Shown here piece by piece: positions 38,766 through 41,700 of a DNA stretch of 64,000 nt (its first letter is position 1; each line of letters begins with the position of its first letter). Under the pieces are notes generated by a model. The model saw nothing but the letters and a program-made list of their open reading frames with translations, did not search any database and was not told where the DNA came from. Source of the DNA: Podarcis vaucheri (taxonomy: Eukaryota); NCBI GenBank assembly GCA_965113315.1, contig OZ220370.1, one strand, 5' to 3'. The position numbers were made by a program, and so were the translations under genes.

Positions 38766-41700
38766 CTAGACAGCCATTTCCATTTTAATAGCTGGATGAG
38801 GATCATAACCTTCTAGTTCAAAGTCATCCGCATTGAAGTCATTGATGTTTTCAACATTGCGAAGAATTTTGAGTTTTGGAAAAGGTCTTGGTTGCCTCTG
38901 AAGCTGAAATTTTAAAGTAGAGTTGGTTATTTCAGAGGGATGGCATTCATATAAAATTGACTAATTATGCAAGGGGTATTCACCTTAGCAACAAATTTCA
39001 CAATGGCATTTGTTTTAAATCATCTCATGTTAATACTTGCAGAAATGTGAACAGTCCAGTAAACTGCACAGCCTTTCACCTTTTAGTAAGCTGTTCAACC
39101 CACTCCAAGCCCATGGAGATCACATCCATAATGTATTGGTCATGTTCAGCAGCTCTTATATTACAGTGGTGCCCCGCAAGACGAATGCCTCGCAAGACGG
39201 AAAACCCGCTAGACGAAAGGGTTTACCGTTTTTTTTTTTTTTTTATAAAATTTTTATTAGGTTTTCACATTTTATATGGACAAAGACAAAAACACAAAAA
39301 ACATAAAAACAAACAAACAGAAAAGTAAAACAACAAACATATATAGTTTCCAGAAAAAACTTATTTTCTAACCCTGGTCATTGACTTCCCCCCCACCCCC
39401 TCCCTTGCATCCCTATTCCCAAATTTGTATCAGCAAATTGGCATTTCCTTATCCATCTTAATATTAGTCCTTTATATATATATATATATATAAAAAAAAA
39501 AAACAAAAACAAAATTAAATTTATTCTAAGTTGGACCTCAGTTCCCTTCCAACGATTTCCCATTTTGTCTTAAATAATAATCTTGTTAGCTAAATCCCAT
39601 AGTCTTAAGTGTTGTTGAAACTAGATTCTTCCCTCCCTCCCTTCCCCGGTTTGTGTCCCTTCCAGAAACATGTCCAAAATAGCAATTATTAGCCCGGATT
39701 CCTTACGTCCGAGGCTCTCAAATCTCTTTCAGTCCCTCTCCGCCGGCCTAGTTGGCAATCCTTTATGTCGGTCTTCACGTCTCGAAAGAGTTCTTTCACA
39801 ATCAGTCCAAAATCTCTTCCCATATTTGCAAGCGACTGCTGAGGAATTTCCACAAGGCATGAATTTTGAACATAATCAAAGTCAGAGTCTATGTGGAGGC
39901 CCCAATTATATTTCTTTATTTTAAATTCCTTGATTTCATAAATTCCCAGGGCCTCCACTTTCATCTTCTGGATCTTTCGTAGATTTGTAGTAGGTTCAGT
40001 CCAATAGTCTCCTTGTTTATGTTCCACAGATGTCAGCTTCTGGACAATATTTTCCCATTTCAGTTCTTCTCTTTCTTGTTTTGTCTTCTCCTGTTCTTTG
40101 GTTATCATTTCCGGCTCAGCTGTGGATTCTTCCTCAACCAGGTTCTCATTACATTGAACAGAACTACTTGTTTCAGGATTCAAGGTCATCAATTGTTCAC
40201 TCATAGCCGTAGTCTGTTGCTGTAAGATTCCAACCAAATAAAACATCCTTTCGATTTCTCCCAGTATCTTTCCATCCACAGCCATTGTAATTCCACAGAT
40301 TTCCCCCTAGAGGGAATCTGGTTACTTAGTGTTCTTTTCTCCAACAGTCCTCTGTCTTATTATTGATTCTTTGTTTCCAACAATTTTAGTTCAATTGTAA
40401 CTCCTTTTAATCCAGAGGGGTCTTAAGTAGCAATTTTTCTACTATTAACAGTCCGTTTGACAGCTTTGACAGCTGTCAAACTCTGCTCTTCTTATCCCAG
40501 CTCCAAAGTAGGACACTCCCGAGCCCTGGAGGGGGGGTTGTTTACAACAGAAATATACCCCTTCCAACACTCCTCTCTCCTGCTCAAAAAAGAGATTCCT
40601 TTTCCAAATCTTGGAAGTTACTGTCTTTTTAAACTCACCCTTTACAGGGTAGGCACTCCAGCTTAGTTCTTTTATCGTTGCTCTGGATCGTCTGCAAGGG
40701 GGGGGTGCGGACTTCCTTTTAACACATCCCCCGATCGTCTCAAATTCAATAGGTAAAATTCTTAGAATCCAAATTCAATTAACTCACGGGTTCTTTTTCT
40801 CAGCCGAATTTCAAGGAAGGAAGTCAGCGCTCTCCAGTCATGGCTCGCGGCTTCGCTCAGCAGAGGTAGCGATGGACTCTCAGTGCCACGCCACCCCCCG
40901 TATCCCCTCCGCAGCCTTTAAAAAGGCTCTTTGCGAATCAGGGGGGGCGCTTAAGGCACCCACCGAGTCTTCAGTCCGCAGGCTTTCGTGCCTGCGGTTT
41001 TAAGGGTCCCCGTGTCGCCGGCACGGCAAAGACCCATCCCCCGCTGAGCCGATTCCCTCCGGAGCTCGGAGGGAATCCGCCATTTCCAGATCGCGCCAAC
41101 CCCGGAAGTCTCGAAAGGGTTTACCGTTTTTGAGCTGCTTCACAAGGCGAATTTCCCTATGGGCTTGCTTCGCAAGATGAAAACGTCTTGCGAGTGTTCC
41201 GATTTTTTTCCGCCCCCCCTTTTTCTAAGCCGCTAATAGCCTTTTAGCCGCTAAGCCTTTAATAGCCGCTAAACCGCTAATAGCGCCAATCCGCTAATAG
41301 GGTTGCTTCGCAAGACAAAAAAACCGCTAGACGAAGAGACTCGCGGAACGGATTATTTTTGTCTTGCGAGGCACCACTGTATTAAGCAAATGACAAGCAC
41401 TATGAGTAATACATTCCATCATTCCTTTAACTCCAAGACTGAACTAATTCAATATATATAGCAATGGAAGGAAATACACAGTGTGAGTAGTAAGGCTGGC
41501 TATTTGCCAAACTATTTTGGATATTTACCTGGATTTTCAAAGGTTCGATATGATTCAGGTAAATATGAGCATCTCCTAGTGTATGTATAAATTCGCCAGG
41601 CTATATAAAAAAGAAACACAGCCTTAATATTAGAAATAGAATGAACAAGAATATACAGGGTGGCCCAGAAGTAGGTATACTGCTTTAAAATCCACATTCT

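Follow-up and report, generated by a model that had tools for sequence, protein, structure and literature searches.

A full-length L1-type retroelement with one short gene in the last TYMS intron of Podarcis vaucheri, a probable member of a lacertid family of L1-dependent retroposons

L1 prefers its own RNA, and how non-autonomous RNAs overcome this preference is still an open question; it is raised here by a retroelement that lies within the last intron of TYMS. In the window, by which we mean the whole stretch of 64,000 nucleotides of P. vaucheri DNA that was analysed, the locus is composed as follows.

39234–41111, minus strand: whole retroelement, 1,878 bp, reading from 41111 to 39234
41112–41131, no strand assigned: target-site duplication, copy at the 5′ end of the element, exactly 20 bp and 100% identical to 39214–39233
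39214–39233, no strand assigned: target-site duplication, copy at the poly(A) end, ending in the TTTTT of the TTTTT/GA nick
39164–41379, no strand assigned: host MITE, interrupted by the retroelement, with the ends CAGTGG...CCACTG and TA on both flanks
38904–41528, minus strand: last TYMS intron, from PF00303 (Pfam) on the flanking exons and GT/AG sites

The element is a full-length insertion: it starts with an L1-type head, contains a single open gene, ends in a poly(A) tail and lacks a reverse transcriptase. Its strand is that of TYMS (both minus), and the MITE that hosts it sits inside the last TYMS intron, which we take to be intron 6 from the human exon numbering, with six of the seven exon motifs found here. 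Removal of the retroelement and of one copy of the repeat leaves a sequence that is colinear with a sister MITE at 27986–28292 (253 of 297 aligned bases identical), and the plus strand of the empty site reconstructed in this way reads TTTTT/GA at the nick. L1 prefers a nick site of the TTTT/purine type, and junctions of this type are made by L1 ORF2p via target-primed reverse transcription. Both signs of an L1-mobilised retroposon are thus present, the target-site duplication with poly(A) at the 3′ junction and the TTTT/purine nick. An earlier sequence-only reading of this DNA had described a full-length element of ~1.9 kb in a TYMS intron, flanked by a perfect duplication of ~20 bp with a TTTTT/GA nick, and it was right in each of these points, both ends of the element being present. 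The perfect 20-bp duplication, together with the undecayed CpG head described below, suggests that the insertion is recent. One copy of the retroelement was found within the window.

Some further observations were made around this locus. The sister MITE has TG instead of TA as its left flank, and its right end is shorter. In its sense orientation in TYMS, the retroelement carries four AATAAA/ATTAAA sites and one strong splice-donor-like site, at 40641 within its leader; judging from these letters, TYMS transcripts could be truncated before the last exon by the sense element. Two related repeats with mutual matches, at 23692–24112 and 52645–53051, have tRNA-like heads (RF00005, 24055–24112 and 52781–52838) and are probably tRNA-derived SINEs. 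A young short repeat forms an inverted pair at 794–1039 and 62958–63203 (246 bp, 97.6% identity), and another pair lies at 16406–16628 and 45398–45620 (223 bp, 89% identity), with one copy inside TYMS. Upstream of TYMS, an exon of the Clusterin family is found at 53397–53879 on the minus strand (PF01093, E 8e-36); in mammals, CLUL1 is the neighbour of TYMS.

Read in its own direction, the retroelement consists of the following parts.

41078–41110, minus strand: L1-type head, GACTTCCGG then AAATGGCG
41051–41077, minus strand: 11-bp hairpin around a GCTC-containing loop, directly after ATGGCG (RNA fold)
40286–41111, minus strand: leader, 826 nt, with a CpG island in the first 450 nt and four short upstream ATG frames
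39689–40285, minus strand: single open reading frame (ORF), 198 aa, for a protein without a catalogued family
39259–39688, minus strand: 3′ UTR with two G-rich tracts, a T/(AT)n run and a T/G-rich end
39234–39258, minus strand: AATAAA (39253–39258) followed by a poly(A) tail of 10 A and 5 more that also belong to the target-site duplication

The start is made of one A, then GACTTCCGG (41110), then AAATGGCG (41085). The start consensus given for clade-1 L1s of Anolis is GACTTCCGGTGN8ATGGCG (Boissinot and Sookdeo, PMC5381506), with ATGGCG at 8 nt, whereas in our retroelement it sits 16 nt behind GACTTCCGGGG. The L1-style head that had been proposed stands, with an ATGGCG that is YY1-like only. 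GACTTCCGG is not specific to lizards, since the L1s of opossum and zebrafish open with it too. The first 152 nt of the element fold with a z of -3.16 (RNA fold; 1 of 200 shuffles as stable), and of the 9 clade-1 heads of Anolis that were compared by eye, 7 have this hairpin layout after ATGGCG. The head match thus gives the element the L1-derived 5′ end of a HAL1-like retroposon, with a putative internal promoter. The expectation of a leader of ~825 nt with a CpG-rich 5′ part also agrees with our analysis, in which the CpG observed/expected ratio is 0.96 over its first 450 nt and 0.31 over the window. At the other end, the 3′ part measures 455 nt and finishes, as had been noticed before, with AATAAA and then poly(A); the first 60 nt of the 3′ UTR are common to a copy in P. 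lilfordi. An Rfam search gave no match within the retroelement.

The absence of ORF2, which had also been claimed, is confirmed for this copy. The only ORF above 120 aa within the retroelement is the one of 198 aa, and the decayed C-terminal fragment of an L1 ORF2 found elsewhere in the window has no similarity to the element (best E 0.28). Thus, ORF2 with its endonuclease and reverse transcriptase, which makes an L1 autonomous, is lacking, as it is in HAL1. The fragment itself, at 20330–20900 on the minus strand, has a Cys-rich motif (zf-RVT, E 0.009) and several stops, and is without a 3′ UTR resembling that of the retroelement.

What, then, does the remaining gene encode? The intact 198-aa frame reported at 39689–40285 is indeed open, and it is long compared with chance: when the retroelement was shuffled 2000 times, an ORF of this length arose in 4 cases, and in 6 cases in another 2000. 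Protein searches with 4, 8 and 10 matches led to 14 clusters, 12 full length and 2 partial. The 12 full-length relatives are 24–69% identical to the window's protein, measure 176–214 aa, start with MA and end in PG-stop; two clusters hold 7 and 10 near-identical members. The only named member is P0016, a “hypothetical protein” of Podarcis lilfordi, which is one of the two partial clusters and is frameshifted near its end. The others are unnamed assembly proteins, and the contigs of their 29 assembly records do not exceed 1,814 bp and are shorter than the retroelement, such short contigs being normal for that assembly-protein collection. A lacertid source of the ORF family is likely, judging solely from P0016 and the L1 head. 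The tail of P0016, read in the shifted frame, matches 20 codons of the window past the stop (6 of 20 identical, shuffle p 0.001), so the junction of ORF and UTR is common to a diverged copy. A weak search for an ORF form of 372–2000 aa found none among 7,999 candidates, and scans of metagenome, viral and prokaryote collections for DNA of relatives had no match, which is what one expects of a repeat from a lizard. Four of the 12 full-length relatives (P0012, P0015, P0018 and P0019) group in a single clade, whose proteins are extended by 12 residues and begin at an upstream Met. In a sequencing-run look-up, part of the stretch was present in 20 of 24 rows, 16 of them with small shares that we do not count as evidence; the other four rows, from three studies and with two organism labels, have shares of 0.34–0.60, which is not proof of copy number, a single copy being expected to give 0.06–0.23 if contigs need two word sightings and 0.33–0.60 if one suffices (an expectation that assumes genome size, read length and threshold, for runs whose library types are not given). 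No RNA dataset was among these matches.

The frame appears to have been kept open over long divergence. The tree of the 12 full-length relatives, with their shared start and stop, sums to ~8.6 changes per column, and the chance of remaining free of stops under neutral substitution is 0.022 for the closest relative and at most 0.01 for the other 11. Neutral simulation leads us to expect broken frames to outnumber intact ones, against the 12 intact and 2 partial observed, a ratio biased by databases that contain called, open ORFs only and by the harder detection of broken diverged copies. Conservation is concentrated at the two ends (0.75 and 0.66 in residues 1–36, 0.83 in 181–198), against 0.29–0.55 in residues 37–162, and the middle of the protein is variable with many in-frame indels. 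Amino-acid substitutions are no more conservative than neutral ones in all 12 comparisons (z -0.9 to +1.5). The prediction of an open ORF with dN/dS below 1 is consequently borne out for the open frame and the conserved ends, but not for the amino-acid changes, which overall look neutral.

The two conserved ends are the following.

40181–40276, minus strand: conserved heptad helix, predicted coiled coil, residues 4–35 (AlphaFold helix 4–34)
39692–39799, minus strand: conserved basic C-terminal block, residues 163–198, ending in L[RKE]ASD[VL][RI][NDS]PG-stop

Across 13 sequences, the a/d positions of the heptads have a hydrophobic fraction of 0.78 versus 0.23 elsewhere, and they remain hydrophobic while their residues swap among V, I, L, M and F. 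The N-terminal helix block is modelled by AlphaFold at pLDDT 67–85; outside residues 1–40 the model is poor, with a mean pLDDT of 46.7 and 152 of 198 residues below 50. In the C-terminal block 7 of 36 columns are invariant, and it coincides with a second CpG-rich patch (observed/expected 1.13, element positions 1301–1430). In this conserved tail, at 39746–39757 on the minus strand, the window's copy reads DCQLG where most relatives have D[YF]QQN, which may be lineage-specific drift or early decay.

It is worth asking whether this protein is an L1 ORF1p, since this is what defines HAL1. No match of the Transposase_22 type was found in Pfam for 12 members at E up to 10, nor for 3 more at E up to 0.01; a PDB profile search of the ORF family returned no ORF1p chain; and the AlphaFold model, of low confidence, has no beta strand and is without a Foldseek match at E 0.001. 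The earlier remark that no canonical ORF1p RRM can be seen is thus in line with three kinds of search, all of which ran without a lizard ORF1p as positive control. The RRM and CTD are described as conserved in all lizard ORF1s (PMC5381506), and of the three parts of an L1 ORF1p (coiled coil, RRM, CTD) only the coiled coil is common to our protein at the sensitivity used. An N-terminal coiled coil is a general feature of ORF1p, and the start of L1_AC18, translated by eye, has a loose likeness to the N-terminus of the ORF; from these two points, descent of the ORF from an ORF1 coiled coil is possible. Other candidates for its identity were rejected: Pfam YycE (E 0.07) and YabA (E 1.4), as well as spike S2, neuroguidin and ApoA-I in the PDB (E 0.7–2.2), are generic helices, and fungal DUF4616-type clusters (Atlas feature scores 0.87–0.89) had a recognition of 2113, below the useful level. 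An Atlas search with the N-terminal part of the protein gave no match. The label “half-L1” given by the sequence-only reading hence describes the layout only, since the defining ORF1p is not detected, while its suggestion of a young, non-autonomous and L1-dependent family is favoured by the L1-type integration, the presence of both ends, the lack of ORF2 and an ORF that is open in diverged relatives.

We therefore regard it as probable that the element belongs to a lacertid family of non-autonomous, L1-dependent retroposons, and we lean, with less assurance, towards the fuller proposal that the protein of this family is an adaptor which aids its own RNA. RNA polymerase II would start at the internal L1-type promoter, the RNA would be translated, and LINE-1 ORF2p borrowed in trans would bind the poly(A) tail and integrate a copy by target-primed reverse transcription. 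More tentatively, the protein may be a two-ended adaptor that takes its RNA to the L1 machinery: the N-terminal coiled coil might assemble with itself or with L1 ORF1p, the basic C-terminal block might hold RNA or the ribosome, and of the linker between them the frame and rough length would matter and the sequence would not. That the frame is kept open implies that it matters for translation to reach the conserved end. For HeT-A, HAL1 and Ag-Sponge, it is regarded as likely that the encoded proteins form multimers with the proteins of the autonomous partner (Kojima 2018, PMC5786205), and the adaptor reading agrees with this proposed co-assembly.

Other explanations have to be weighed against this one. 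The ORF could be an upstream third ORF of a lacertid lineage of full-length L1s, within their long 5′ region; the window's copy would then be a rare product of internal deletion or of early ending, in which that 5′ region is joined to a 3′ end. The 5′ UTRs of Anolis clade-1 L1s average 1.27 kb and have two CpG islands (PMC5381506), a second patch is found here too, the window holds a single copy, and the contigs of the relatives are too short to show what lies downstream. Yet the gap between the CpG patches is ~850 nt here versus 300–400, the 3′ end is complete with its own AATAAA, none of the 29 assembly contigs exceeds the length of the retroelement, and no such ORF is reported for Anolis in the accessible part of PMC5381506 (consensuses compared over their first 400 nt each); we consider this explanation unlikely, though well worth keeping in mind. 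That a host gene family gave rise to the insertion as a processed copy, with a captured L1 promoter as its driver, is very improbable in our opinion. Retrocopies too have poly(A), target-site duplications and TTTT/A-type nicks, and an open frame could reflect host selection, but the 5′ end is the first base of an L1, the 13 lineages reach down to 24% identity, the sole annotated lizard protein is frameshifted, and no cluster of the 14 except P0016 has a named member.

Two more explanations accept the same family and differ in what the protein does. Perhaps only the act of translation is selected, for RNA stability, escape from decay or closeness to ribosomes making ORF2p, while the protein is idle and the conserved ends are RNA signals. 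The neutral-looking substitutions in 12 of 12 comparisons, the variable middle with its indels and the CpG-rich patch over the C-terminal block speak for this; we find it quite unlikely all the same, as the a/d positions stay hydrophobic through their residue swaps, and there is no stable RNA structure around the stop codon, a candidate we rejected (z +0.24, 114 of 200 shuffles as stable). A third-position skew in P0016 weakly points the same way: its four inferred changes in SDVRNPG all fall on the third codon position, against 8 and 8 at two comparable positions past the stop, a difference that lacks significance (Fisher p 0.10), and CpG decay could account for two of the four. This skew also favours the other explanation, in which the C-terminal peptide is a ribosome-arrest signal that slows termination at PG-stop, so that the nascent coiled coil stays on its own RNA via the ribosome and drags this RNA to L1 particles. 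ORF1 would then have been replaced by a tether, in which a coiled coil is the hook, the linker is free and an arrest peptide resembling 2A sits at the stop, and which docks the RNA on L1 particles. A length of ~35 residues is near that of the exit tunnel, and the conserved block has this length; in each of the 13 full-length proteins it finishes precisely at the stop, the P and G of PG-stop being invariant. In addition, FMDV 2A with its last Pro changed to a stop accumulates stalled ribosomes (PMC12846837), and 2A-like peptides occur in other non-LTR clades (PMC3708506). However, the likeness was noticed after the fact, DVxNPG is one residue short of (D/G/C/N)(V/I)ExNPGP and without its Glu, its Asn is replaced by Asp or Ser in 3 of 13, and register is critical in 2A (PMC12338488). 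The core (D/G/C/N)(V/I)ExNPG-P was found in register in 0 of 13 proteins, all of which end in xDV/LxxPG-stop, and neither the tail peptide nor its profile hit a 2A-bearing chain in the PDB at E up to 10. We thus rejected a 2A identity for the C-terminus, which may be an arrest motif in its own right, and the tether as a whole seems doubtful to us. If it is true, it would be a protein-based hijack of L1 and a natural use of termination stalling by a retroelement. Alu reaches L1 by its SRP9/14 route, to which such a tether would be a parallel.

The family with an adaptor protein, which we prefer, can finally be set beside the known systems. The half-L1 layout is already known from HAL1 (PMC5753468, PMC5322556, PMC8535693), whose mammalian elements share the L1-type 5′ end, the single ORF, poly(A), target-site duplications and the need for L1 reverse transcriptase and endonuclease (PMC5753468, PMC5322556); HAL1, however, encodes a recognisable ORF1p, whereas the lizard ORF is without detectable RRM/CTD or Transposase_22. 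We found no description of a lizard HAL1, or of a lizard half-LINE with a protein other than ORF1p, in our searches of an open-access literature library. The clade-1 L1s of Anolis carolinensis (L1_AC1, 3b, 7, 8, 11, 12, 14 and 15) share the GACTTCCGG start, ATGGCG, the hairpin with its GCTC loop, a long CpG-rich leader, a T-rich 3′ end and AATAAA; they differ, apart from the ATGGCG spacing, by their 6.2–6.7 kb with ORF1 and ORF2, and ORF1 is ~355 aa long (1,066 nt; PMC5381506) versus the 198 aa found here. 2A/StopGo sequences also end in (N)PG with DV shortly upstream and stall when followed by a stop (PMC12846837), but the lizard tail, besides being shorter and lacking Glu, has no downstream Pro or second protein, and the available text of PMC3708506 reports no 2A-like peptides in the L1 clade. 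HeT-A and Ag-Sponge likewise have one protein, no reverse transcriptase and a proposed co-assembly with the proteins of their partner (PMC5786205), yet their LINE clades are different ones, and the protein they encode is the counterpart of ORF1p. Known protein-coding parasites of L1 keep ORF1p, while the lizard retroelement has retained another, short protein, whose two ends are conserved and whose middle drifts freely in at least 13 lineages. This suggests that lacertid genomes contain an uncatalogued repeat and protein family, copies of which can pass for host genes, as in the case of the P. lilfordi “hypothetical protein”, and with one ORF and two motifs it offers a compact and testable system.
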